Source: Nitrososphaeria archaeon (lineage in GTDB: Archaea; Thermoproteota; Nitrososphaeria_A; Caldarchaeales; JAVZCJ01). From it: a DNA stretch of 64,000 bases. How positions within the stretch are numbered: position 1 is the stretch's first letter; the number at the start of each line of letters is the position of its first letter. The translations under genes were made by a program, and so were the position numbers. Location of the stretch: positions 16,479-80,478 of the forward strand of contig JBGVSY010000035.1 of assembly GCA_041862235.1 (NCBI GenBank), read 5' to 3'. The notes under the pieces were generated by a model. The model ran no database searches and had not been told where the DNA came from. It was given only the letters and a program-made list of their open reading frames with translations. Positions 8,182 to 58,071 of the stretch are shown one piece after another.

Positions 8182-10421
8182 GCTGTGTGTCTCCCAAGCT
8201 TAATTGATAGCTAGGTATTAATCTGTACACGCTGAAACGTTGTTCTGAGACCGTGGGCTGAGGCAAGTCCTTTTGAATAACGCCTCAGAGCGCCTCTTTG
8301 TCTCAAATTGTCAGTTTTCTGGCTTTGTGGGTCTTCAGCTCGCTCCACGTCCATTAGATTTCTCAGGCCATGACAACCGTCGCCAAAAGGCATGGGTAGT
8401 CTACGCGCATTCGAGGCGGTAGTTTCGTTAGGTCACAAAGGGGGATTACACTCCCGGACGAATGCAGGAAGGCTTTAAGCTACCTTCCGCGATCATAGCG
8501 GAAGTCTCTGCCGCTACTTCTGGGACACGTCCGCTGAGTCTAGGTGTGTTCGGTAGAGCGATTCAACAATCTTGACGACCGAGGAAATGTGCTCAAGATA
8601 TAACTAGTTTTTGCTGTGACGAAAGAATCTCCTCGCAAAGCCTGAGGGTTTGCTCCAGCCCTTGCTACTTCCATTCTTCCTCTGATCTCTCATGCATGAC
8701 TCACAAGTAACTGACTGGGCTGCCGCTGATCATCATGATGTCAAGCATGAAGAGAATCGCCAGCAACCGTAAGTTCATTTACCGATCGATCTATCTAGAG
8801 GCCCCAGACTGACTGCGAAGATCTTACCTGAGATGGCTCCTCCGAGGTCTCCGCCACCCGAAACAGGCTTCTCGTTCGACAGTGGTATGTCGTTCTCTGC
8901 CTCCGCTTGATTCACCGGTTCTCATTCATCGATTGGTGGAGGCCAGCTCGAAAGCGACATGTGCGCCACAGAGGCAGGACGTTTCAGGTCATCACTACAT
9001 TTTCTCGCAGCAACGAAATTCATCTTCTCGCGGGTAGACATTCTGACAACTCGATCGATCGAGACTGCCCCAGATACATCTTGCACCCACAATTTGAGTG
9101 AGAGAGTTCGAGACTCCATTGATGTTGGTTGGAAGATCAGTCGATCTGAGCAAGATGCAGGAGACGATGTCACCTGTGTCAGACGGAATGCCGTATGGGC
9201 TGTTGCGAATGCCCCGCAAGCAGAACGCTCTATCGACGGATATAGTCAGGTCTGACTTGACCAAGAAGAATCGGTGGCAGGTTTGTCTGACATAGGAACC
9301 GCGTCGGAACGTGGAACACAGTTCCAGCATTACGTACTGATCTATGATCCGGATCGATATGCAACGTCCCCCCATAGCTGTGAGCGAATAGCAGTTGCTT
9401 CACAGCCGTTGTTACTTGGTCGATCGTCGATCGATAACAACAAAAAGTGTCGCCCGATCGGTTGGAAGCCAACGTCAAATGACGACAACAACTCGCCGAT
9501 TCGAAGTGAGTGTTGGAGAATGTCACGTCATCATCACAATGCGATTTGTTGCAGAGAAGTTTACACCTCTACCAAGAGCTTGGTGGAGGGATCGTTGATA
9601 ACCGGAAGAAGAAGCATGCAAGAGGGTGTTCTCCGAGTTTGGAGGGTTAAGGTTCGAAATACACATACAAGCTAGAGGTCAAACCCAGAGGTGTAGATGT
9701 GCTAGACATCCTCGGCTAAGACAGACCTGTCATGAGTTATTGGGTATACAATTGTGTATTTCAGGACAAGACGACTCTTATTGTCTTGTAAAGTGGCTGG
9801 AGAAGCAGAAATAGGGCTCCTCGCGCGATTCGTCATACGTCACTCATGTTTGGTGAACAACGTTCGTAGTGTCTCGTCAGGTTTGTCGATAGGCCAATTT
9901 CGTTGGGTTACTCAGATCTTGTACAGTGGGATGACACGCGAGTACGATGGATCTACACTTGAAGAATCAGCTGAAGGATGTGCCGCCACCGACAAAACTT
10001 ACACAATGTGCAAGATTTGTCAAGGCACAACAAGACTGTGAGAGATGGAATGGTAGTTTGCATACAGGCCGTTATGATCGCAGACTAGATCTCATCGGAT
10101 TGTTCGAGTTCTGTGATCTTCATTGCTTACTGGAGAACACTGTTCTACACAAATCTCACTAACGCGTCCTATTAGACCAAACATCCCTCCCGTCTGACAA
10201 CGTTGTCGGATTGCAATCCTCGGCTCCAGTTGGGTATGCTGTTGACAGACCACGTTATCGTTACCTGCCAACGCGCTGAGTTCACACCTGCAAAATACTC
10301 AGAAAATGTGTTAAACCTGGCAAAACTGGCACATTGTGTAAGACCTATGAGCTCTTCCACGTCTTACACAATGTTAAAGGAGCGTCTGTGTCGAGCAGCC
10401 CGCGGCAATGTGAACGAGATC

Positions 10422-11222
10422 ATGCATAGCAACGGCACCGGAACGGTGATCACGTTCGCCAACCAAAAAGGAGGCTGTGGGAAGAGCACAACAGTGGTCA
10501 ACGTGGGAGCCATACTATCATGGTGTCAAAACATGAATGTGTTGCTTGTGGATATGGATCCCCAGGCTAACACCACTAGCGGAGTCGGGATAATCCCTCA
10601 TGAGGTCGACACAACGGTATACAATGTACTTCTGACAGCCGCAGGTTTCAAAGATATGCGAGTTGGGCCTGCAACAGCCGAGGAGGCGATCATAAGAACA
10701 GCGTTCCCAAACCTCGACATTCTTCCGTCCAACCTGTATCTGGCAAGGGCCGAATCCGAGCTGCAGTCAGTTGTCTCGAGAGAAACGCTTCTCAAGCGAG
10801 CGTTGAATTCGATTAAAAGCCACTACGACTACGTGCTTGTAGACACACCCCCATCACTGGGGATCTTAACGTTGAATGCTTTAGTGGCTTCGGACGACGT
10901 TATCGTCCCTGTGCAAGCTCACTTCTATGCCGCTTCAGGAATACCTCTGCTGTTTGGCGCCATAGAAGATCTCAGGGTTGCGGGTTATGATGTCAAGGTA
11001 AGAGGGTTCCTAATGACAATGGTGGACAACAGAACCAGACTTGCACGAGATGTGAGGAAACTCCTTAGAGATCAGCACGGTAACCTCGTCTTCCAAACAG
11101 AGGTGCCCTCAAATATCCGTCTAGCCGAGGCCCCAAGCCACGGGAAACCTGTGATATTCTACGACTCCAGGTGCACTGGTGCTCAAGCATACCAAAAACT
11201 GACGGAGGAAATGATCAGTTGA
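10422..11222 (+). CDS. ParA/MinD-family partition ATPase (SegA-like). The start is chosen about 10 residues before the Walker A motif.
   Basis: Deviant Walker A ANQKGGCGKSTT and ParA-like downstream motifs (VLVDTPPSLG). The ORF track gives a longer N-terminal extension from 10203 that is probably not translated. Confidence 0.75.
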   Translation: MHSNGTGTVITFANQKGGCGKSTTVVNVGAILSWCQNMNVLLVDMDPQANTTSGVGIIPHEVDTTVYNVLLTAAGFKDMRVGPATAEEAIIRTAFPNLDILPSNLYLARAESELQSVVSRETLLKRALNSIKSHYDYVLVDTPPSLGILTLNALVASDDVIVPVQAHFYAASGIPLLFGAIEDLRVAGYDVKVRGFLMTMVDNRTRLARDVRKLLRDQHGNLVFQTEVPSNIRLAEAPSHGKPVIFYDSRCTGAQAYQKLTEEMIS

Positions 11223-12868: not shown

Positions 12869-12992
12869 GGGCCCGTAGCCTAGAATGGATAGGGCGGCAG
12901 CCTCCTATCCTCCTTTGCGAGAGTCAGCTGCAGAGAGGTGGGACGAGCACCCCCTCGTGGAGATCGCGGGTTCAAATCCCGCCGGGCCCGCC
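12869..12992 (+). tRNA. tRNA-Arg (anticodon CCT, tentative), about 124 nt with two introns: a canonical one at 37/38 and a second in the variable-loop region
   Basis: Acceptor GGGCCCG pairs with CGGGCCC, then G and an encoded CCA. The D arm is GCCT/GGGC, the anticodon stem GCAGC/GCTGC, the loop CUCCUA, and the T arm GCGGG-TTCAAAT-CCCGC. There are about 18 extra nt after position 37 and about 29 extra nt between the anticodon stem and the T stem. Confidence 0.65.
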
Positions 12993-25951: not shown

Positions 25952-26377
25952 ATGTGTCCAATAACCTATTTATCTCATGAGATCTTCGACGAGATCGTAG
26001 ACCATTGCCAAGCGGAATACCCGCTAGAAGCTTGTGGGATACTTCTGGGAACAAGCGCGCCTCGACAGACTCGAGTCACAGACATCGTAAGAGCGAAGAA
26101 TATCAAGAGATCCAGCGTGAGGTATGAGATAGACCCATCAACCCTTCACAGGACTCATTTCACCGCGGAGATGAAAGGTCTAGAGGTAGTAGGATTCTAT
26201 CACTCACACCCAGACCTTCCATCCGAGCCATCGGAATACGATGCTGAACACGCACTATCAGGTCAGATATATCTTATCGTATCGTTACAGGTCAAAGGCA
26301 GAAAAAAACCAACCGCTTGGAGATGGAGCTCGGAAGTAGATCGATTCCTTAAGGAGGAACTGGTCATCCAGCCGTGA
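25952..26377 (+). CDS. JAMM/MPN+ metalloprotease (Mov34 family)
   Basis: EACGIL plus the HSHPDLPSEPSEYD JAMM motif (E...HxH...S..D). 141 aa. Confidence 0.75.
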   Translation: MCPITYLSHEIFDEIVDHCQAEYPLEACGILLGTSAPRQTRVTDIVRAKNIKRSSVRYEIDPSTLHRTHFTAEMKGLEVVGFYHSHPDLPSEPSEYDAEHALSGQIYLIVSLQVKGRKKPTAWRWSSEVDRFLKEELVIQP

Positions 26378-40058: not shown

Positions 40059-41105
40059 GTGGGTGACTGGACGAAGTTTAAGCGGGTTATGGCTGCGGTT
40101 CAGTTGCGTGAAGCTGACCGCGTCCCCGTGGTTCCGCAGATAACCTACACCACTGCGCATATTGCTGGAGTGAATTTCTTAGATGGGTTAAAAGATCCTC
40201 AGACCATGGCGCGATTGCTGGTCACAGGTTTCCGGTTAGCTGGATATGACGGGGTCTATGTCGGTTGGGAGTCCTCTTTCGACCTTGTAGCAGAAGCTAT
40301 GGGATGTAAACTGGAGTTCAAGCCGGACGGGATACCGGTAGTGAGAGAAAGAGTCGTCAAGAACAAGGAAGACGTGAAGCTGTTGCAGGTAGTAGACCCT
40401 GAGAGCAGCGGCAGGATTCCGGTTCACCTTAAGGCCATTCAGCTCGTGAGAGAACAGATTGGAACTAGCGTCCCTATTTTCAGATATGTGCCAGGCCCAT
40501 TAACCTTAGCTGGCGCACTCATAGGGCCAGAAAAAATGTTGGTGAGTCTCATTAAGGATCCTTCTTTCATCCGCCAGGCCTTGGAACCCGCAACCGAGTC
40601 CACCATTAGATTTGCTGCTGCCGCTGTCAAGTATGGATCTGATATCATCGTGGTCGCTGATCCCATAGCTTCTACTACTGTGATCTCACCGCGAATGTTT
40701 AAGGAGTTTGCTTACCCTTCGTTGTGTCAAGTAGTAGAAAGAGTATTGGAGGTTGGAGGTATACCGTCTCTGCACATTTGTGGAAAGACAGAGTCCATAC
40801 TTGAAGAGATGACGCGTACAGGGAGCAAGATACTGGAGTTAGACCACTCGGTAGATCTTGCAGTGGCAAAGGCTAGGATCGGCACGCGAGTTTGCATCCA
40901 AGGTAACTTGAATCCAACCGGTGTCTTGCTAACAGGTGACTCAAAGGATGTCGAGGCAGAGTCTCGAATATGTATCGAAAAGGCTTCGAAGCACGGAGGG
41001 TTCATACTTAGTTCTGGCTGTGAAGTACCACTACGCGCGTCCCTGCAAAACATCAAGGCTATAGTCTCTGCTGCTGAGAGGTTTGGTGTTTATCGAGATG
41101 CCTAG
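40059..41105 (+). CDS. URO-D-family methylcobamide methyltransferase (MtaA/MtbA-like)
   Basis: Uroporphyrinogen-decarboxylase fold, 348 aa, directly upstream of a corrinoid protein and an MttB homologue. A likely start lies at 40089. Confidence 0.65.
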   Translation: MGDWTKFKRVMAAVQLREADRVPVVPQITYTTAHIAGVNFLDGLKDPQTMARLLVTGFRLAGYDGVYVGWESSFDLVAEAMGCKLEFKPDGIPVVRERVVKNKEDVKLLQVVDPESSGRIPVHLKAIQLVREQIGTSVPIFRYVPGPLTLAGALIGPEKMLVSLIKDPSFIRQALEPATESTIRFAAAAVKYGSDIIVVADPIASTTVISPRMFKEFAYPSLCQVVERVLEVGGIPSLHICGKTESILEEMTRTGSKILELDHSVDLAVAKARIGTRVCIQGNLNPTGVLLTGDSKDVEAESRICIEKASKHGGFILSSGCEVPLRASLQNIKAIVSAAERFGVYRDA

Positions 41106-41115
41106 GAACTTCATG

Positions 41116-41772
41116 AGAATGAAGGAGAATGAACTGTTCAGTGAGATTCGTCGAGCTGTGATCGGCTACGATGAGAAGACAGCCGTGCAAACTGTGAAGA
41201 AGACAGTGGAACTTGGAATGAGCCCCAAGCGAGTGTTGGAGGAGGCATTAATACCTGGCATACAGGAGGTCGGCACCCTCTTTGCTCAGGAGAGAATCTT
41301 CATACCGGAAGTCATGCTCAGCGCAGAAGTCTTCAGCTTAGCCATGAAAATAATCAAGCCTGCAATCCTTAGCAAGGGAGAAGAGGTGGAGAACCTTGGA
41401 ACCGTTTTGATAGGAACTGTTGCGGGTGATGTCCATGACTTGGGAAAGAGCTTGGTAGCCACCTTGCTTACGGTCGCGGGGTTCGAGGTGTTCGACCTGG
41501 GAATAGATGTCTCGACCGAACTGTTTGTTAAAAAAGTGAGAGAGCTAAACCCAGACGTTCTGGCACTAAGCGCTCTTATGAGCACGACTATGCTTGAACA
41601 ACGCGAGGTGATAAGAAGTCTGAAAAAGCAAGGACTGCGAGACAAAGTCAGAGTAATTGTTGGCGGCGCTCCAGTCACGAATGATTGGTCCACTCAAATC
41701 GGAGCGGATGGATATGCTCCTAATGCTCATGAAGCTGTTGAATTAGTTAAGAGAATTCTAAGAGAACGCTAA
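41116..41772 (+). CDS. Corrinoid (B12-binding) protein, MtaC/MttC-like
   Basis: B12-binding motif GDVHDLGKSLV (DxHxxG) with a downstream SALMSTTM and G-G motif. The tracked ORF starts at 41083, overlapping mtaA. Confidence 0.8.
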   Translation, partial: RMKENELFSEIRRAVIGYDEKTAVQTVKKTVELGMSPKRVLEEALIPGIQEVGTLFAQERIFIPEVMLSAEVFSLAMKIIKPAILSKGEEVENLGTVLIGTVAGDVHDLGKSLVATLLTVAGFEVFDLGIDVSTELFVKKVRELNPDVLALSALMSTTMLEQREVIRSLKKQGLRDKVRVIVGGAPVTNDWSTQIGADGYAPNAHEAVELVKRILRER

Positions 41773-41784
41773 CTGTGAATAAAT

Positions 41785-43254
41785 ATGGATGAGCGTGGTG
41801 TAAAGAATAGGCCCAACCTGAGGTTGCTGTCGAATGAGGTCATAGAGCGAATCCATGAGTCCTCTATTCGGTTGCTTGCGGACATAGGAGTAACAGTAGA
41901 AAGCCGTGAAGCTTTGGATATCCTAAGAGAAGGAGGTGCCAAGGTCGACGAAGTGAAGAGAAACGTAAAGATTCCTTCATCTTTAATCGAGGAAACATTG
42001 AGGAAGGCTCCTCATAGATTAACCATCTACAGCCGCGATAGAAGACATGATCTCAACCTTGCAGAAAACAACGTTTATTTTGATCCTGGATCAGCGGCTA
42101 TATCCATCTTTGATTATAGCAAGGCTTCACCAAGACCTCCCGCTCTCAAGGACGTAAAGGACTTCGCTGTTGTTGTGGATTCATTGAAGAATATTCATGC
42201 TCAAAGCACAGCACTAGTGCCAATGGATATGCCAGAGACTATGAGGGACAGGATTCGTCTCTATGTTGTTCTGAAGTACTCGACGAAGCCTATCGTAACT
42301 GGGGCCTTTACTGTTGATGGAATTTCAGACATGAAACACATGCTTGACATTGTTTCAGATAGCGGGTCAAAGAAGGCGGGGGCTATGGCTATTTTCGATG
42401 TTTGTCCGTCACCTCCCTTGAAGTGGAGTCACCTAGCTGCCAAGAATGTGATTGATTGTGCTGAAGCGGGTCTGCCCGTTGAGTTGGTCTCTATGCCCCA
42501 GATCTCGGCGACAGCACCAGCCACTCTCGCTGGGTGCCTAGTGCAACATAACGCTGAGGTGCTTTCAGGAATAGCGTTGGCTCAATTAGCATATCCCGGA
42601 ACACCAGTTATCTATGGGGGATCTCCCGCACTATTCGATCCGCGATACGGTACATCGGTAATGGGTTCTCCAGAAGTGTTACTTCTGTCCTGTGGATACG
42701 TAGATATGGCTAAACACTATGGACTACCCAGCCACGCCTACCTCGGTATGAGCGACGCCAAAGTGATTGATTACCAAGCTGGTTTCGAAAGCGCATTCGG
42801 GGCTTTGATGGGTGCTTTGAAAGGGATAAACATCATTTCTGGCGCAGGTATGATCGAGTTTGAGTCTTGTCAAAGTTTGGAGAAACTGGTGCTTGATGAT
42901 GAGATATGTGGTTATGTACATAGGGTTGCCACAGGCATCGACGTGACTGAGGAGACTCTAGCCAACCAAATCTTTCAAGAGTGTGTGGCAAAGGGACATT
43001 TCCTTTCACATAAGCATACAGTCAGGTGGCTAAGAAGAGAGCAATACATACCAAGTGAGTTGGTTGACCGCAGGGATAGGAGCATGTGGAGAGCTCTCGG
43101 TAGGCTTGATGCCCTGAAACGAGCACGAACACGAGTGGAACAAATACTCTCTGACCATCAACCGGAACCTCTAGAGCCCGACATCGAGAAAGAACTCACC
43201 CGTTTTGCCGTTTCGATCTGTAGATCACATGGAGTCCCCCGCCTGACACTCTAA
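41785..43254 (+). CDS. MttB-superfamily methyltransferase (trimethylamine/quaternary-amine:corrinoid methyltransferase family) without pyrrolysine
   Basis: Uninterrupted 489-aa ORF of MttB length and context, with no in-frame TAG. Confidence 0.7.
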   Translation: MDERGVKNRPNLRLLSNEVIERIHESSIRLLADIGVTVESREALDILREGGAKVDEVKRNVKIPSSLIEETLRKAPHRLTIYSRDRRHDLNLAENNVYFDPGSAAISIFDYSKASPRPPALKDVKDFAVVVDSLKNIHAQSTALVPMDMPETMRDRIRLYVVLKYSTKPIVTGAFTVDGISDMKHMLDIVSDSGSKKAGAMAIFDVCPSPPLKWSHLAAKNVIDCAEAGLPVELVSMPQISATAPATLAGCLVQHNAEVLSGIALAQLAYPGTPVIYGGSPALFDPRYGTSVMGSPEVLLLSCGYVDMAKHYGLPSHAYLGMSDAKVIDYQAGFESAFGALMGALKGINIISGAGMIEFESCQSLEKLVLDDEICGYVHRVATGIDVTEETLANQIFQECVAKGHFLSHKHTVRWLRREQYIPSELVDRRDRSMWRALGRLDALKRARTRVEQILSDHQPEPLEPDIEKELTRFAVSICRSHGVPRLTL

Positions 43255-43427: not shown

Positions 43428-45392
43428 GTGAGATCGTTAGTAACGAAGCTCAGCGCGGCCTTTCTTCTGGGCTTTTTTTGTCTAACGCCGCTGTTCAGAG
43501 TACGTGGAAAAGGATTGTTTGTAGATCAGTTAGAGCTCTCGGACTTGGAAGTAGAGGTCGTGACTTGGATCCAACCTCATACTGCACGGCCCCTCGCACG
43601 GTATGACGTGAAAGCAGAAGTAATTATGGAAGGCATGTTGATTGAGAAATCTACGGTAACCGATGACGACGGAAAAGCCTTCATACCAGCCTTGGTTTGG
43701 CTTGGGGCAAAGCTGAACATCTCCGTTAAACCCGAGAATGAGCTGGTGAACCCCGGAAGTGATTACCACCGTGAACTCCTCAAGAGTCAGGGAGTCGACT
43801 ATGTGGACAGGTCCAATGAGTCAGTAAAGAGCTCAGTGCCGGTTGAAAAGAAAAAGATTGCTTTGACCGTCGACAAGATCAGCCCCAACCTACCCTTTGA
43901 GGTTAGAGTGGATTACACGGCTGTCACTGCGGTTATCACGGATGCTCTTGGAAGACCCCTACCAGGCGCTTGGGTGGCTTTGGTGGATGTTTCAACCGGG
44001 CTCCTCGCCGGATGGTCGTACACAAATTGGTCTGGACACACCTCACTGATTAATGTTCCAGTCTCAGAGGGAGAAGATGGAGAGTACTCAGTCCAGGCTC
44101 ATTATCTTGGAGAAGGATTACAGGGAAAACCTGTCTGGCCATTCGGGGCTTATGGCGTTTGGCCCTGCATATATGATTCGTGGCTAGACGAACAGCTAAA
44201 CAAGTCTATCACGGTTTATGGTCTTTATGGAAGACATTTGAATATCACTACTCATGTCTATAAAACAGAGCTGAACTTCTTCTACGGGCGACGAATACCG
44301 ATAGATGTCTCAGTAGTTATTCATCCAAAACATCTCCGAATCGAGAATGTACGTGTTACTCAAGGAACCGTCGGGATAGAGAGGCTTCCCAGAGGACTTT
44401 ACGGTGTCACCGCAAAGTGGGCTGACATCGTAGTTGGTTCAGACAACGTGAACGTCACCAAAGTAGGGGGGGGTCACTTTCTCTTTGAGATGAATGTAGC
44501 AGTGTACGACCTGAACCTAACGATAAAGGATGCGGCAAACACTCACACAGTTCCAGATGTAGAGTGTGAAATACACGATCCGCTCGGAAGGATTACCTAT
44601 GCTGAGGCCCGCGCTGGTAGGCTGATAGTTCAAAGACTTCCGAAAGGGTACTATGCAATAACATTTAATTGGATTTCACCCTACACAGGTGAAAGGATAG
44701 ACATCGCTAGCTTCGCAGGGAACATATCATATTTAGCGTCAAACACGGAAATCTACACAAACACGTACGATGTTGCCTTTGCTGTGAGAGATGGAAATGG
44801 AAGGCCGGTGAGCGGAGTTACAATCATGGTGGGAAGGAGAACAAATCCAACGAATCCAATGGGCGAGGCTGTATTCACCCTCGTTCCCGCTGGAGAGTAC
44901 CAGGTGACGGTCTCCAAGGAACATATAGTCCTAGAAAAAAGGACAATTATCATACATTTCTCTTTCAGGAATTTCTCTTTTACCCTACCGAACTTGCTGG
45001 ATTTGAATGTGAAGGTAGTAGACCAAGAGGGTCGGCCAATTGATTCAGTCGTCGTCATGCTTAGGAAAGGTGACGAGATCGTCGCCTCCTCCAACACCAA
45101 CGAGCAAGGCTTGGCAACGTTAAGCCAGATGGTTGTAGACAACTACACTGTCGAAGCGACCTATGATCAGTTCACTGGAAAGCTTCTGGTAATGGCGCGG
45201 GAGTTCCACAAGTCAACTCCAATTGTAATAGAGTTGCCCTTGAGTCAGGGAACAGTCTCGACTACACAAACAACCACGATGGAAGGCGGACTCCCGGATG
45301 GAACCTTGGTCATCATTGCTGTGGTTGTAGTAGCGTTGGTACTCATCGTACTCGTCGTCTCACAACGGCTGAAGCGTACGGTTGCACCATAG
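43428..45392 (+). CDS. Cell-surface protein with a signal peptide, repeated beta-sandwich (CarboxypepD_reg-like) domains and a C-terminal transmembrane anchor
   Basis: N-terminal hydrophobic leader, recurring DGxG and VxVxV beta-rich repeats, and a C-terminal GTLVIIAVVVVALVLIVLVVSQRLKR. Confidence 0.55.
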   Translation: MRSLVTKLSAAFLLGFFCLTPLFRVRGKGLFVDQLELSDLEVEVVTWIQPHTARPLARYDVKAEVIMEGMLIEKSTVTDDDGKAFIPALVWLGAKLNISVKPENELVNPGSDYHRELLKSQGVDYVDRSNESVKSSVPVEKKKIALTVDKISPNLPFEVRVDYTAVTAVITDALGRPLPGAWVALVDVSTGLLAGWSYTNWSGHTSLINVPVSEGEDGEYSVQAHYLGEGLQGKPVWPFGAYGVWPCIYDSWLDEQLNKSITVYGLYGRHLNITTHVYKTELNFFYGRRIPIDVSVVIHPKHLRIENVRVTQGTVGIERLPRGLYGVTAKWADIVVGSDNVNVTKVGGGHFLFEMNVAVYDLNLTIKDAANTHTVPDVECEIHDPLGRITYAEARAGRLIVQRLPKGYYAITFNWISPYTGERIDIASFAGNISYLASNTEIYTNTYDVAFAVRDGNGRPVSGVTIMVGRRTNPTNPMGEAVFTLVPAGEYQVTVSKEHIVLEKRTIIIHFSFRNFSFTLPNLLDLNVKVVDQEGRPIDSVVVMLRKGDEIVASSNTNEQGLATLSQMVVDNYTVEATYDQFTGKLLVMAREFHKSTPIVIELPLSQGTVSTTQTTTMEGGLPDGTLVIIAVVVVALVLIVLVVSQRLKRTVAP

Positions 45393-45517
45393 ATAGCTCG
45401 GGTCAAGCGAGAAATGGGCGATGGCGATGCACCGCATTTGGTGAAGATTGTATAGCTGGGTCTTGCCACACATCACCAGATTTATTAGTTGCTCAAAGAC
45501 TGATAGAAGCCTAGGAC

Positions 45518-45766
45518 ATGAGAGTTAAAGTGGTTCCTGCAGTGGGTGGGGGAGAGCCGCTTGAGCTTGAAGTGGCGCCTACAGCTACTGTGGCAGCCGT
45601 TAAGGCGAAGGTGTGCAGCATCAAACGTCTACCTGAGGATGTGACACGGCTAACCTACAGAGGACGAGCACTGAAGGAGACGGAGACCCTGTCAGAGATT
45701 GGTGTAGAGGATGGAGACAGGTTAGTTCTCCTCACTCGAACCGGCGGCGCGGCTTTACTTAGATGA
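45518..45766 (+). CDS. Ubiquitin-like protein (beta-grasp) ending ...TRTGG followed by a 5-residue tail (AALLR)
   Basis: Alignable along its length with eukaryotic ubiquitin: LEVAPTATVAAVKAKV against LEVEPSDTIENVKAKI, and RLVLLTRTGG against LHLVLRLRGG. Confidence 0.7.
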   Translation: MRVKVVPAVGGGEPLELEVAPTATVAAVKAKVCSIKRLPEDVTRLTYRGRALKETETLSEIGVEDGDRLVLLTRTGGAALLR

Positions 45767-46183: not shown

Positions 46184-46498
46184 CTATGTTTTCTTGACCC
46201 TAGCTTTCAATATCTCGGTCATTCTCGTCCTAAGCTTCTCTCCCTTCAGGTTCTTCTTCGACAAAGAGTCGAGTTGTCGTATTACTCTCTTTTCTCCGAG
46301 GAGGGTAAGCCACTTCTGGAAATCTCCTCTGTCAAGGTGAAACTCGAGAGATTGAGCGTTTACCTTTTCGACACAGTTCACGAACTCAGGGAGATTCGTG
46401 GCGAGGAATTCGGTGGGCATGTCAGTTCCATGATAGAAATGGAAGCCTTTTTCTAGGGGGACTGTCTTCAGTTTTTTCACCGTACAGCTCACTTTCAT
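46184..46498 (-). CDS. Hypothetical small protein
   Basis: 104-aa ORF, divergent from the GT4 gene. Confidence 0.4.
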   Translation of the reverse strand: MKVSCTVKKLKTVPLEKGFHFYHGTDMPTEFLATNLPEFVNCVEKVNAQSLEFHLDRGDFQKWLTLLGEKRVIRQLDSLSKKNLKGEKLRTRMTEILKARVKKT

Positions 46499-46765
46499 GA
46501 AGCCGCTGACAAGCCCCTACATAAGTTTTACTTATGTTACTCTTTGACTCCGAGGAATGTCTCCTGTTCTCCACCATTCAGCCCGTCCGCAAACCTCGTC
46601 CACAGATCCTTCAGATGGAATCGAAGGCATCGGACTTCGATCATTGAGCTTCGAGATACAAATCTAAGACTCTTTGAGGGAACGCTGAAAGGTTATCTGT
46701 ATACGAAGGGTTTTTATCTGCTTCATGTAGTGGAGGTGAGCATTACCATCGTGAGCGTGGAATTG

Positions 46766-48019
46766 ATGAAGCTCCTTGAGCTCTCTTGGGAGTTCTACCC
46801 TTCATTGGTCGGCGGGCTCGGAACCTACGCATCCGAGATATGTCGACAATTTGTAAAGCTGGGCACTGATGTGACAGTGTTGACGATCAACAGAGGTGAC
46901 CTGAAGAAGAGAGAGATCTGGCAGGGAATCGACGTTCATCGACCTATAATAGTCAACACCGAGGACTTCTTCGGAAGCATAGTCTCTGAGGAACTGACGG
47001 GGTGGGGGGGAAGAGGCATTGAATTCTTTTCGAACATAATTTCTTACAACATCTTGTCTGCAAGTAAGGCAGCCAATGATTTGGTCCGTCTTGAGGGGAT
47101 GGAGTTTGACCTGATCGTGTCTCATGACTGGCTCTCAATACCTGGCGGGCTAAGTCTGAAGCGGGAACTGAACCTCCCTCTGGTTTTCCATGTTCATTCC
47201 ACTGAGCATGGAAGAAGCCTTGGAAACCCGTCACGAACCGTACAGCAACTTGAGTTAATTGGCGCGAAGAGAGCTGACTTGGTTGTTACTGTGTCTTGCG
47301 CTATGAAAGAAGAGATATCTACCATAGGTTTTCCCCCAGAGAAAATCAAGGTAATCTACAATGGTGTGGATGAAGAAAAGTATAGATCCTCTAACGTGGC
47401 CACAGAAAGAGTGAAGGAGATTAGAGAACAGTACGCCGTTAGAGAAGACGAGATCATGATACTCTTCATCGGCCGCCTGGTTCCTGTCAAAGGGGTCGAC
47501 AAGCTGGTTCAATCCATGGCTTACGTGAAGTCCAAGTTTCCGAGTGCCAAGCTTTTGGTCATTGGGTTGGGGGATTTACAGGAACACTTGAAAAACTTAG
47601 TTCGTCAGTATTCATTGGAGAAAGAAGTGCGTCTGAGATACGAGTTCATAGGCGAGAAGGAAAGGGTGGAGCACTACGCAGCTTGCGATGTCACAGTGTT
47701 CCCCAGTCTTTACGAGCCATTTGGCATAGTTGCCTTAGAAGCGATGAGCATGGAGAAGCCCGTTGTTGTCGGCGCGCGAGGCACAAGCGGCCTCAGGGAG
47801 ATAGTAATTCCGAATGGAGAGAATCAGTGTGGCTACCATGTTAATCCATATGATCCTGCCGACATAGCCTGGGGAATTAACAGCTTGCTGGTTGACAGAG
47901 AGAATATGAAGCGGTTAGGAAAGAATGGGCGAAGCCGTGTTCTCGAGAAATTCACGTGGAGTGCGATAGCAACCGAGACACTAGGTGCTTATCAAGAGCT
48001 CCTTCAATCTAGTCGATAG
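46766..48019 (+). CDS. Glycosyltransferase family 4 (GT-B, glycogen-synthase-like)
   Basis: EPFGIVALEAMSMEKPVV (the E-x7-E region) and an N-terminal YPSLVGGLGTY. The tracked ORF starts at 46544; the start is chosen at MKLLELS. Confidence 0.75.
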   Translation: MKLLELSWEFYPSLVGGLGTYASEICRQFVKLGTDVTVLTINRGDLKKREIWQGIDVHRPIIVNTEDFFGSIVSEELTGWGGRGIEFFSNIISYNILSASKAANDLVRLEGMEFDLIVSHDWLSIPGGLSLKRELNLPLVFHVHSTEHGRSLGNPSRTVQQLELIGAKRADLVVTVSCAMKEEISTIGFPPEKIKVIYNGVDEEKYRSSNVATERVKEIREQYAVREDEIMILFIGRLVPVKGVDKLVQSMAYVKSKFPSAKLLVIGLGDLQEHLKNLVRQYSLEKEVRLRYEFIGEKERVEHYAACDVTVFPSLYEPFGIVALEAMSMEKPVVVGARGTSGLREIVIPNGENQCGYHVNPYDPADIAWGINSLLVDRENMKRLGKNGRSRVLEKFTWSAIATETLGAYQELLQSSR

Positions 48020-56826: not shown

Positions 56827-58071
56827 TTGGAAGATCCCCTCGCCAACTTAGTCTTCAGCGCACACAGCGCCTCTCCCATATTTCTCGATAGGGAGGTTCT
56901 GCGCGCAGACTATCTTCCCTCCTCCCTGCCCCACCGCGTCGACCATCTGAGGCGCGTTGCACAGATGCTTTCGCCAGCGCTTGCTAGGTCGAGGCCGTCC
57001 AACATTTTCATCTACGGAAAGACCGGAACCGGCAAAACCGCCGTGCTCAAACGCGTTTTCGACCGCTTCTCCTCCGAAGCAAATAGGCTTCAGCGCAACG
57101 CCAGGTTTGTGTATGTCAACTGTAGGCTCTTGGGAACAGAATACCGGGTCCTAGCTGCGCTTGCCGCGGCCGTCAGGGTGCGGGTCCCCTTCACCGGCTT
57201 AGCTACAGCTGAGGTCTTCCGTCGGCTCACCTCCGGGCTCGCCAAGAGGCCAGGCTTCTTCGTGCTTGGTCTGGACGAGATCGACGCCTTAGTCAAGCTC
57301 TCAGGCGACAACCTTCTCTACGAATTGACTAGGATAAACGAGTCTCTTACCTCCTCCCGTGTGTCTCTCGTTGGTGTTTCCAACGACCTCATGTGGAAGG
57401 ACCTTCTGGGACCCCGCGTGTTAAGCAGCCTAAGTGAGCAAGAACTTGTCTTCCACCCGTACTCTGCGCTTGAATTGGCCGACATTCTAAGGGAGCGTGC
57501 TCGGCCAGCTTTCAGACAGAGCGCCATTTCAGATTCAGTGATAGCTCTCTGCGCGGCTCTGGCCGCGTCTGAGCATGGCGATGCACGCCGAGCGCTCGAT
57601 CTTCTCAGGGTGTCCGGCGAAGTTGCTGAGCGCGACCAGTCAACTGCTGTCAGTGAGAAACATGTGCGTATGGCCCAAGGTGTCATCGAGCGAGGCAGAG
57701 TTTTCGAAGCTCTCACCTCGCTGCCACTTCATTCTCGGATGGTTCTGGCATCAATTCTCTCCCTAAGTCGCCAAGGCTGCGATGTTACGTCCGGGACCGT
57801 TCACTCAACATACAAGGACTTCTGCAGTCTTCTCAACGTTGACCCGCTCACCCAGCGCCGAGTCAGCGGCCTAATATCTGAGCTGGATATGATGGGCGTC
57901 TTGGGGACCAAGCTAATCAGCTTTGGTCGATACGGCAGGACAAAGAAACTCAAGCTCCTCGTCCCCATTGATGACGTCGCCTCGGTCTTAGAGTGCGATG
58001 AACTCCTCTCACCAGTGCTTACGCATCCTCCCCCGAACACAACTCCACAATATTCTGACAAACACCTCTGA
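56827..58071 (+). CDS. orc1: Orc1/Cdc6 replication initiator (apparent TTG start)
   Basis: N-terminal ...LRADYLPSSLPHRVDHL, Walker A GKTGTGKT, Walker B FVLGLDEIDAL, and a C-terminal winged helix. Confidence 0.85.
   Translation: MEDPLANLVFSAHSASPIFLDREVLRADYLPSSLPHRVDHLRRVAQMLSPALARSRPSNIFIYGKTGTGKTAVLKRVFDRFSSEANRLQRNARFVYVNCRLLGTEYRVLAALAAAVRVRVPFTGLATAEVFRRLTSGLAKRPGFFVLGLDEIDALVKLSGDNLLYELTRINESLTSSRVSLVGVSNDLMWKDLLGPRVLSSLSEQELVFHPYSALELADILRERARPAFRQSAISDSVIALCAALAASEHGDARRALDLLRVSGEVAERDQSTAVSEKHVRMAQGVIERGRVFEALTSLPLHSRMVLASILSLSRQGCDVTSGTVHSTYKDFCSLLNVDPLTQRRVSGLISELDMMGVLGTKLISFGRYGRTKKLKLLVPIDDVASVLECDELLSPVLTHPPPNTTPQYSDKHL

Follow-up and report, generated by a model that had tools for sequence, protein, structure and literature searches.

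We found that a 64,000-nucleotide stretch of the genome of a hot-spring archaeon of the Caldarchaeales (the window) encodes a conserved, selected and lineage-specific second ubiquitin paralogue. The gene lies apart from the ubiquitin operon, and we refer to it as the orphan ubiquitin; the genome of the window encodes a full canonical ubiquitin system besides it. The reading towards which we lean, with some reserve, is that this paralogue of the operon ubiquitin is a conjugatable modifier, trimmed by a JAMM-family protease and sharing the machinery of the operon.

Identity and fold of the orphan ubiquitin

The open reading frame at 45518..45766 (+ strand) was confirmed. It encodes 82 aa (MFB0568589.1, named 'ubiquitin-like domain-containing protein' at NCBI) ending in LVLLTRTGGAALLR, and the sequence was identical to that given in the original prediction. 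There the product had been called a genuine ubiquitin homologue, and the searches upheld this. The protein matched the Pfam ubiquitin model PF00240 with E = 6.2e-14 and 52 bits (cut-off 25.4 bits). A phmmer search of the PDB gave a full-length match to the ubiquitin of Caldiarchaeum subterraneum (CsUb; 2mqj, 6fj7, 5zew, 6fnn) with an E-value of ~1e-33, and each eukaryotic ubiquitin unit was matched at ~1e-7. Identity was 70% to CsUb and 30% to human ubiquitin. The ThiS model PF02597 aligned with residues 2-12 only, at E = 0.39 and 11.7 bits, under its cut-off of 22.5 bits.

The AlphaFold2 model had a mean pLDDT of 87.6 and a beta-grasp topology, with the elements E2-7, E15-18, H25-36, E43-47 and E68-73; residues 76-82 were disordered (pLDDT <50). 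Foldseek placed CsUb on top (TM 0.86-0.88, rmsd 1.6-1.8) and eukaryotic ubiquitin next, and ThiS/MoaD structures were absent among the top 50 matches. The structure prediction, for which a ThiS/MoaD fold had been named as the opposing outcome, thus gave the ubiquitin fold. The product of 45518..45766 is a member of the ubiquitin family, of the CsUb type, and not a ThiS/MoaD protein.

Genomic context of the orphan ubiquitin

Upstream of the gene is a surface protein of 654 aa (43428..45392, + strand) with CarboxypepD_reg/Ig-like repeats recognized by Pfam and a C-terminal TM segment. Downstream, and convergent with it, is a gene for a DUF5752 protein (Pfam; 46184..46498, - strand), after which comes a GT4 glycosyltransferase (46544-48019). 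The surroundings are therefore as had been described, with a surface-protein gene on one side and a glycosyltransferase locus on the other. The upstream neighbour was also found at loci L017, L019, L020, L021 and L022 (63-97% identity), and the DUF5752 gene at L017, L018 and L023 (73-98%). The surface protein is a context marker; there is no evidence of a functional partnership with the ubiquitin.

The ENA, Logan, JGI and NCBI assemblies contained homologues 86-99% identical to the orphan ubiquitin. On every contig that was long enough to tell, the context was the same: surface protein, ubiquitin, DUF5752 on the opposite strand, and glycosyltransferase. The identical protein occurred in four independent assemblies with unchanged neighbours, and the same arrangement in at least six independent assemblies (ENA, Logan, NCBI, JGI). 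In more distant relatives the neighbouring proteins were down to 53-73% identity, yet their order was kept, which indicates that the arrangement is old, stable within the clade and no assembly artefact.

The original prediction had reported no E1 or E2 in the window, and this held in every search. A Pfam scan of all ORFs of at least 70 aa found no ThiF/E1, UQ_con/E2, RING or second JAB domain in the window. When the window was searched by tblastn with C. subterraneum Rpn11, E2, E1 and two RING probes, only the ubiquitin (70%) and a weak match to a JAMM protein were obtained; with the operon proteins of the genome itself, nothing else matched at E <= 5. Contigs 99.6-99.98% identical to the window extended it by ~4.7 kb to its right and by 8.5-10 kb to its left; the operon genes were absent from these flanks, about 15 kb in all. 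We rejected an operon lying just beyond the window edge, given these flanks and the lack of synteny with any cluster-bearing locus. A thiamine-, molybdopterin- or cysteine-type carrier neighbourhood was not seen around the orphan ubiquitin, and the window has no gene of the ThiF family.

The ubiquitin operon in relatives and in the same genome

A GTDB scan with a ubiquitin alignment, using one genome per species, yielded 16 loci, each in a MAG of Caldarchaeum or Terraquivivens. Their ubiquitins were 65-71% identical to the orphan, and the genome of the window was not one of those hit. All 16 showed the order Rpn11 (- strand), then Ub-E2-E1-RING...RING2, although at two of them (L003 and L014) the contig ends early. 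When metagenomes were scanned with an E2 alignment, 80 loci were obtained, half of which (40) had a Caldarchaeales-type E2 (at least 57% identity to CsE2). Ubiquitin was directly upstream of E2 in ~38 of these 40; the other two were contigs starting at or inside E2. No Caldarchaeales cluster devoid of ubiquitin was found among the 80 metagenome loci. The claim that ubiquitin, E1, E2, E3 and Rpn11 are normally clustered is thus borne out by 16/16 reference genomes and ~38/40 metagenome loci.

An E2 profile search led to a cluster whose representative (P0022) corresponds to NCBI MFB0569501.1 with another start call. This E2, with a full operon (L117), was found only in SRR29975709, SRR29975710 and SRR31155648, and the first two of these also contain contigs 99.8-99.9% identical to the window. 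The operon begins with an Rpn11 homologue of 260 aa on the - strand (MFB0569499), followed by a linked ubiquitin of 78 aa (3732-3968 of L117; MFB0569500.1) immediately upstream of the E2 (MFB0569501.1), and then an E1 with a C-terminal ubiquitin-like region (MFB0569502). After the E1 come two small or coiled-coil proteins and a membrane RING protein. Identity between the Rpn11 homologue and CsRpn11 is 52.5%, and the homologue has a hydrophobic C-terminal segment.

The proteins of the window are MFB0568547-568606, on a 94,631-bp contig, and include 568547 (FtsZ), 568573 (JAMM), 568582, 568589 (the orphan ubiquitin) and 568601. Those of the operon locus, on a contig of 62,361 bp, are MFB0569497-569508; among them, MFB0569504 carries the locus tag ACETV0_07830. 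PGAP locus tags are numbered in steps of five. ACETV0_07830 is then roughly gene 1566, so that the protein block starts near MFB0568000 and the window accessions belong to the same record. A second MAG has both kinds of gene: an operon at MDH5702858-5702863 (AsnRS, Rpn11, Ub, E2, E1), an orphan-type 82-aa ubiquitin (MDH5703881) and a JAMM protein (MDH5704002). A third MAG repeats the pattern (MDH5361784, FtsZ; MDH5362020-5362023, operon; MDH5362907, JAMM). Among the listed accessions of GCA_041862275.1, a second MAG of the same species as the window, E2 was not found. The same-genome link consists of MAG bins, which are not closed genomes, and accession arithmetic. Composition speaks less clearly for one genome: GC content was 54.0% in the operon contig vs 49.8% in the window, and the tetranucleotide correlation between the two was r = 0.86, lower than the 0.92-0.96 obtained when chunks of the window were compared with its remainder. 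Even so, the operon lineage was the nearest to the window among all cluster-bearing lineages.

The E1, E2 and RING proteins that the original prediction had proposed to look for elsewhere in the genome were found in this operon, and the outcome it had set against itself, a genome with no E1, did not occur. The idea that the gene is the only ubiquitin of the organism did not stand, because the same MAG has a linked ubiquitin, E2, E1, RING and Rpn11 homologue on another contig.

Duplication, selection and a putative promoter

Since the operon retains its own ubiquitin, the window gene is a second copy, that is, a paralogue and not a relocated orthologue. Relocation of a single ubiquitin gene was rejected on two grounds: there was no operon lacking ubiquitin among the 80 loci, and the operon of this genome has one.

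We built a neighbour-joining tree on positions 1-75 (75 sites), from which the C-terminal motif was excluded. The orphan clade was monophyletic in 100/100 bootstraps and lay on a long branch. Its sister group included the linked ubiquitins of the same lineage in 88/100 bootstraps and consisted of them alone in 53/100. Four minority states (A20, T22, V25, R37) were, as a set, common only to the orphans and the linked ubiquitins of this lineage, and identity between the two was 73-74%. The tree and the shared states favour a duplication of the operon ubiquitin within or close to the lineage, probably followed by faster divergence of the orphan copy.

Comparison of the window gene with three orthologues gave a dN/dS of 0.04-0.13 at a dS of 0.7-1.4, with the constraint reaching through the motif TRTGGA. 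Upstream of the gene we found a TATA-like box, cagATTTATTAG (45477..45488, + strand), 31-38 nt before the ATG. The motif cag[a/g]TTTATTAG was kept in L021, L022 and L023, whereas the remaining intergenic spacer had diverged. From its position and conservation, the TTTATTAG box is a putative promoter.

Diagnostic residues and the C-terminus

We compared the residues of 36 distinct operon-linked Caldarchaeales ubiquitins with those of eight distinct orphan sequences. At eight positions the two groups shared no residue (linked to orphan: K2R, S13E, P40E, T42V, K68R, I72L, V76G, G78A). K68 was invariant in the 36 linked ubiquitins and Arg in all orphans. CsUb undergoes self-ubiquitylation at K4, K53 and K68 (Hennell James et al.); in the orphan clade K53 is kept, K4 is mostly kept and K68 is lost. 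The orphan also retains R74 (human R72) and the residues of the T46-centred patch.

The terminal motif differs as well. All 36 linked ubiquitins have TRTVGG, whereas all eight orphan sequences have TRTGGA, the altered codons G76-G77-A78 being at 45743..45751 (+ strand). In the alignment, orphan G76-G77-A78 corresponds to V76-G77-G78 of CsUb and to R74-G75-G76 of human ubiquitin. A di-glycine in the canonical register is thus not present in the orphan; its GG comes one residue early, and Ala78 stands at the position of human G76. Beyond it is a putative propeptide, A79-L-L-R82 (45752..45763, + strand), which varies among relatives: the tails found after A78 were ALLR, ALPR, ALLG, ALFQ, ASFPRSP, IS, TS and IL. 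Many linked ubiquitins, those of this lineage included, stop directly after TRTVGG.

The C-terminus can be aligned in two registers. The window has ACC GGC GGC GCG GCT... and the linked copy ACA GTA GGC GGC TAA. This codon comparison suggests that the Val codon and the stop codon were lost, so that GG would be the homologous pair and the tail one residue shorter. In the other register, Ala78 would occupy the position of the conjugating glycine. With CsRpn11, G78A is tolerated and G77A is cut slowly, while bulky residues immediately past the cleavage site block the enzyme (Fuchs et al.). By these tolerance data both registers are possible, and Ala78 and Ala79 would be acceptable after a GG cleavage site. 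The description of the C-terminus as GG plus a five-residue tail was right in that residues are encoded after GG; the register it assumed is one of two, as TRTGGA is invariant and the variation starts past A78.

In C. subterraneum, the full-length ubiquitin precursor is refractory to E1 until CsRpn11 takes off the propeptide (PMC5654768, PMC6043591). In the orphan, the GG lies one residue nearer to strand beta5 than in all operon ubiquitins and in eukaryotic ubiquitin, or else the terminal residue is Ala; with either change, an E1 and an Rpn11 co-evolved with TRTVGG might recognize it less well.

Proposed role of the orphan ubiquitin

The orphan would be translated as a precursor, unlike the operon ubiquitin of its lineage, which is translated ending in GG. 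A JAMM-family protease would have to trim this precursor before activation by E1; by analogy with CsRpn11, the likeliest enzyme is the Rpn11 homologue of the operon. The trimmed protein would then be conjugated through the single operon-encoded set of E1, E2 and RING. With its tail shortened or otherwise changed, and with K68 gone, it may have a distinct role, for example as a pool regulated on its own, as a mono-modifier or as a chain cap. We infer these steps of processing, activation and conjugation from the sequence; the whole course of trimming by Rpn11, ATP-dependent activation by E1 and transfer to lysines is known only for CsUb (PMC5654768, PMC6043591).

The main rival is that the orphan is a non-conjugated ubiquitin-like protein, which we consider rather unlikely. 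The shifted GG, or the Ala, together with an uncleaved tail would block E1, and the protein would serve as a non-covalent regulator or decoy for the Rpn11 homologue, the E1 or ubiquitin-binding proteins. The fixation of V76G and G78A in 8/8 orphans speaks for this, as TRTVGG is invariant in the 36 linked ubiquitins, and so does the orphan tail, which loses a residue when read in the GG register. The tailed pro-ubiquitin of C. subterraneum is itself refractory to E1. Moreover, the linked ubiquitin needs no processing, so that a dedicated maturation enzyme for the orphan is putative. However, modifier precursors typically look like the orphan, with small residues after GG and a short tail that is variable and disordered. 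Further points against this rival are that R74 and the T46-centred patch are retained, that purifying selection is strong through TRTGGA, and that CsRpn11 tolerates G78A.

A bolder extension of that reading is that the orphan is a functionally distinct second modifier, born from ubiquitin in a minimal E1/E2/RING system, which would be inactive as translated until a JAMM protease frees it. We regard this as possible but doubtful. If it is true, the altered tail (TGG, or TGGA with a final Ala) and the loss of K68 would give conjugates with other fates, for example caps that cannot be extended, or conjugates that are poorly reversed. The step that led from ubiquitin to ubiquitin-like modifiers, and so shaped the eukaryotic system, would then have been taken independently in a prokaryote.

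The small JAMM protease of the window

The original prediction had pointed to a JAMM/MPN+ open reading frame at 25952-26377 as a candidate ubiquitin enzyme. The frame is real: 25952..26377 (+ strand) encodes a small JAMM/MPN+ (M67) metalloprotease of 141 aa of the Prok-JAB class (MFB0568573.1, 'M67 family metallopeptidase' at NCBI), and its catalytic motif is intact (E26 ... H84-S-H86 ... S94-x-x-D97; PLEACG ... GFYHSHPDLPSEPSEYD). A place among the Rpn11-type enzymes was not upheld. The protein scored 82 bits (E = 3.7e-23) with Prok-JAB PF14464 and 40 bits with the eukaryotic-type JAB model. Its best PDB matches were 2kcq (5e-19), 2kks and PfJAMM1 (5ld9/5lda, 1e-8), while the CsRpn11 chains in the PDB were matched at 26 bits (E = 9e-5). 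Over ~100 aa, its identity is 26-28% with both CsRpn11 and the Rpn11 homologue of the same genome. We rejected it as an Rpn11 orthologue on this bit score and identity, the true Rpn11 homologue being in the operon.

The neighbouring genes, one for a phosphoglucomutase and one for a PHP-domain protein, are not part of the ubiquitin system. Between it and the orphan ubiquitin are 19 kb and ~16 genes, and in other assemblies the two are on separate contigs. We looked for an adjoining SAMP gene and rejected this candidate as well: there was no SAMP-like small ORF ending in GG near the JAMM gene, and no ThiS, CysM or ThiF in the window. In C. subterraneum, CsJAMM (Csub_C0703), which lies beside the SAMP gene Csub_C0702 much as Mec+ lies beside CysO, cleaved SAMP precursors and not the CsUb precursor (PMC6043591). 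The window JAMM is a small prokaryotic-type M67 protease, and nothing observed links it to the orphan ubiquitin.

A separate pathway, in which this protease matures or deconjugates the orphan and a SAMP-type E1 (UbaA/MoeB-like) possibly activates it, is accordingly one that we judge improbable. The intact catalytic motif is compatible with it. So is the distribution of the protein, whose homologues of at least 73% identity were found only in the lineage, the next being at most 49% identical, and which may thus be as lineage-specific as the orphan ubiquitin; this restriction is weak evidence, as 59 candidates were considered. The hydrophobic C-terminal segment of the Rpn11 homologue might also mean that a soluble precursor needs a soluble protease. 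The pathway lacks a genomic link, however, given the 19 kb, the ~16 genes, the different contigs and the phosphoglucomutase and PHP-domain neighbours, and CsJAMM cut only SAMP precursors and left the CsUb precursor intact. The Rpn11 homologue of the operon fits better as the trimming enzyme of a conjugatable orphan.

A duplicated gene outside the operon with an altered C-terminal motif might be suspected of being a decaying duplicate on its way to a pseudogene, or else an artefact of assembly or binning. The signs of selection and conservation effectively refute this: dN/dS is 0.04-0.13 at a dS of 0.7-1.4 across species pairs, the frame is intact in at least eight distinct variants, the promoter-like box is conserved, and the same context recurs in at least six independent assemblies.

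Comparison with known systems

Among prokaryotic models for how eukaryotic ubiquitylation arose, the ubiquitin operon of Caldarchaeales is the best characterised. The system has been described as minimal, having a single ubiquitin, a single E1 and a single E2. In the literature searched, the coverage of which was incomplete, there was one ubiquitin per operon and no description of a second ubiquitin paralogue in Aigarchaeota/Caldarchaeales. A selected second ubiquitin outside the operon shows that modifiers have diversified in a minimal archaeal system as well. The orphan and linked ubiquitins form a natural experiment on what the length of the tail and its last residue mean for recognition by E1 and Rpn11 enzymes of ancestral type, and the pair bears on precursor processing as a means of regulation. 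The tryptic remnants of the two would differ (TVGG for the linked ubiquitin, TGG or TGGA for the orphan), so they would be distinguishable by proteomics.

The orphan resembles CsUb (Csub_C1474; 2MQJ, 6FJ7, 6FNN) in sequence (70% identity) and in its beta-grasp fold (TM 0.86-0.88). The two also share a beta1-beta2 loop that is two residues longer (PAVGGG), conserved R74, T46, K4 and K53, and residues encoded past GG. In contrast to CsUb, the orphan lies outside the operon, its tail reads TRTGG-A... where CsUb has TRTVGG-CGEPIRRAA, it has Arg at K68, a mapped site, and at K2, and it coexists with a canonical operon ubiquitin in one genome.

The linked ubiquitins of the same lineage are 73-74% identical to the orphan, share A20, T22, V25 and R37 with it, and are the closest linked group in the tree. 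They differ from it in having 78 aa, stopping after TRTVGG with no propeptide, and lying immediately upstream of E2, whereas the orphan is set apart by a promoter-like box of its own, by its variable tail and by eight clade-specific substitutions.

The SAMP, ThiS and MoaD systems with their JAMM1 proteases (HvJAMM1, PfJAMM1, CsJAMM) also combine a small beta-grasp protein, a C-terminal GG and sometimes a propeptide that JAMM removes, and the window does contain a small JAMM. The orphan, however, belongs to the ubiquitin family by sequence (ThiS, E = 0.39), and the JAMM adjoins no carrier gene.

Eukaryotic ubiquitin-like paralogues (NEDD8 beside ubiquitin) and pro-ubiquitin have a GG-containing C-terminus, are made as precursors and are encoded at loci apart from the conjugation enzymes. 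The parallel is one of analogy and not of shared descent of the paralogy. A dedicated E1 or E2 was not found for the orphan, and its divergence is modest (73% identity). It is nevertheless like NEDD8 and pro-ubiquitin in being a diverged ubiquitin paralogue that contains GG, is encoded as a precursor and is separate from the enzymes.

Variation in the ubiquitin operon of Caldarchaeales

Rpn11 processes the ubiquitin precursor in C. subterraneum. In many Caldarchaeales loci, the operon ubiquitin ends right after GG and has no propeptide (loci L035, L038-L040, L042, L043, L045-L049, L054, L056-L064, and L117, the last carrying the operon of the window's own lineage). This shows that processing of a ubiquitin precursor by Rpn11 is not universal across the order.

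The layout of the operon also varied. A partial operon with the arrangement Rpn11|Ub-E2 was present at L032 (Rpn11, 8865-9386; ubiquitin, 9757-9990; E2, 10001-10474), and neither E1 nor RING was detectable within about 9 kb 3′ of it. Some Caldarchaeales can therefore have the operon divided differently. Loci L034, L036, and L037 also represent this Rpn11|Ub-E2 lineage.

In a Caldarchaeum relative (L029, contig FWWM01006349.1, 9764-10501), the ubiquitin frame continues directly into E2, giving a product of 242 aa that contains TRTVGGSENLYVELPE. A protein of 247 aa (P0010) likewise had ubiquitin and UQ_con domains on one chain. The joined Ub-E2 may be a natural fusion, or else the outcome of a frameshift or stop loss.

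The operon E1 proteins had a ubiquitin-like region at their C-terminus that matched both the ubiquitin probe and Pfam ubiquitin; it was seen at L012 (11696-11851) and in the E1 genes of L024, L111, and L117.

Other genes in the window and its flanks

Three neighbouring plus-strand genes (40059-43254) lie immediately 5′ of the surface-protein gene and encode a URO-D/MtaA-like methyltransferase, a B12-binding corrinoid protein, and an uninterrupted MttB-superfamily methyltransferase. This trio resembles a module for corrinoid-dependent methyl transfer, here in a genome of the Caldarchaeales.

A Cdc6/Orc1 gene was found at 56827-58071 (+), with sizeable noncoding stretches 5′ of it (about 55.5-56.8 kb), and a replication origin may be close to this gene. 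The window is flanked by aldehyde:ferredoxin oxidoreductase (AFOR), GAPDH, and Clp1-like genes (2659-4533 on L106, a contig reaching beyond the window, just past its right end).

Rfam gave a tRNA match of 45 bits at 12869-12990 (+). This tRNA probably contains an intron, since the match spans 122 nt; ARAGORN called zero tRNAs in the window.

Rpn11 homologue and membrane features

The Rpn11 homologue of the window's lineage is encoded on the minus strand at L117 (2499-3281) and L111 (8526-9407). In L117, its C-terminal end is hydrophobic and transmembrane-like (GLIAMALAAVAIMVLVAFIFAIG). Since the RING protein is a multi-pass membrane protein as well, the two features combined hint that the ubiquitin system of this lineage is membrane-associated. 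In comparison with C. subterraneum, the homologue is longer, at 260-293 aa versus 202 aa in CsRpn11.
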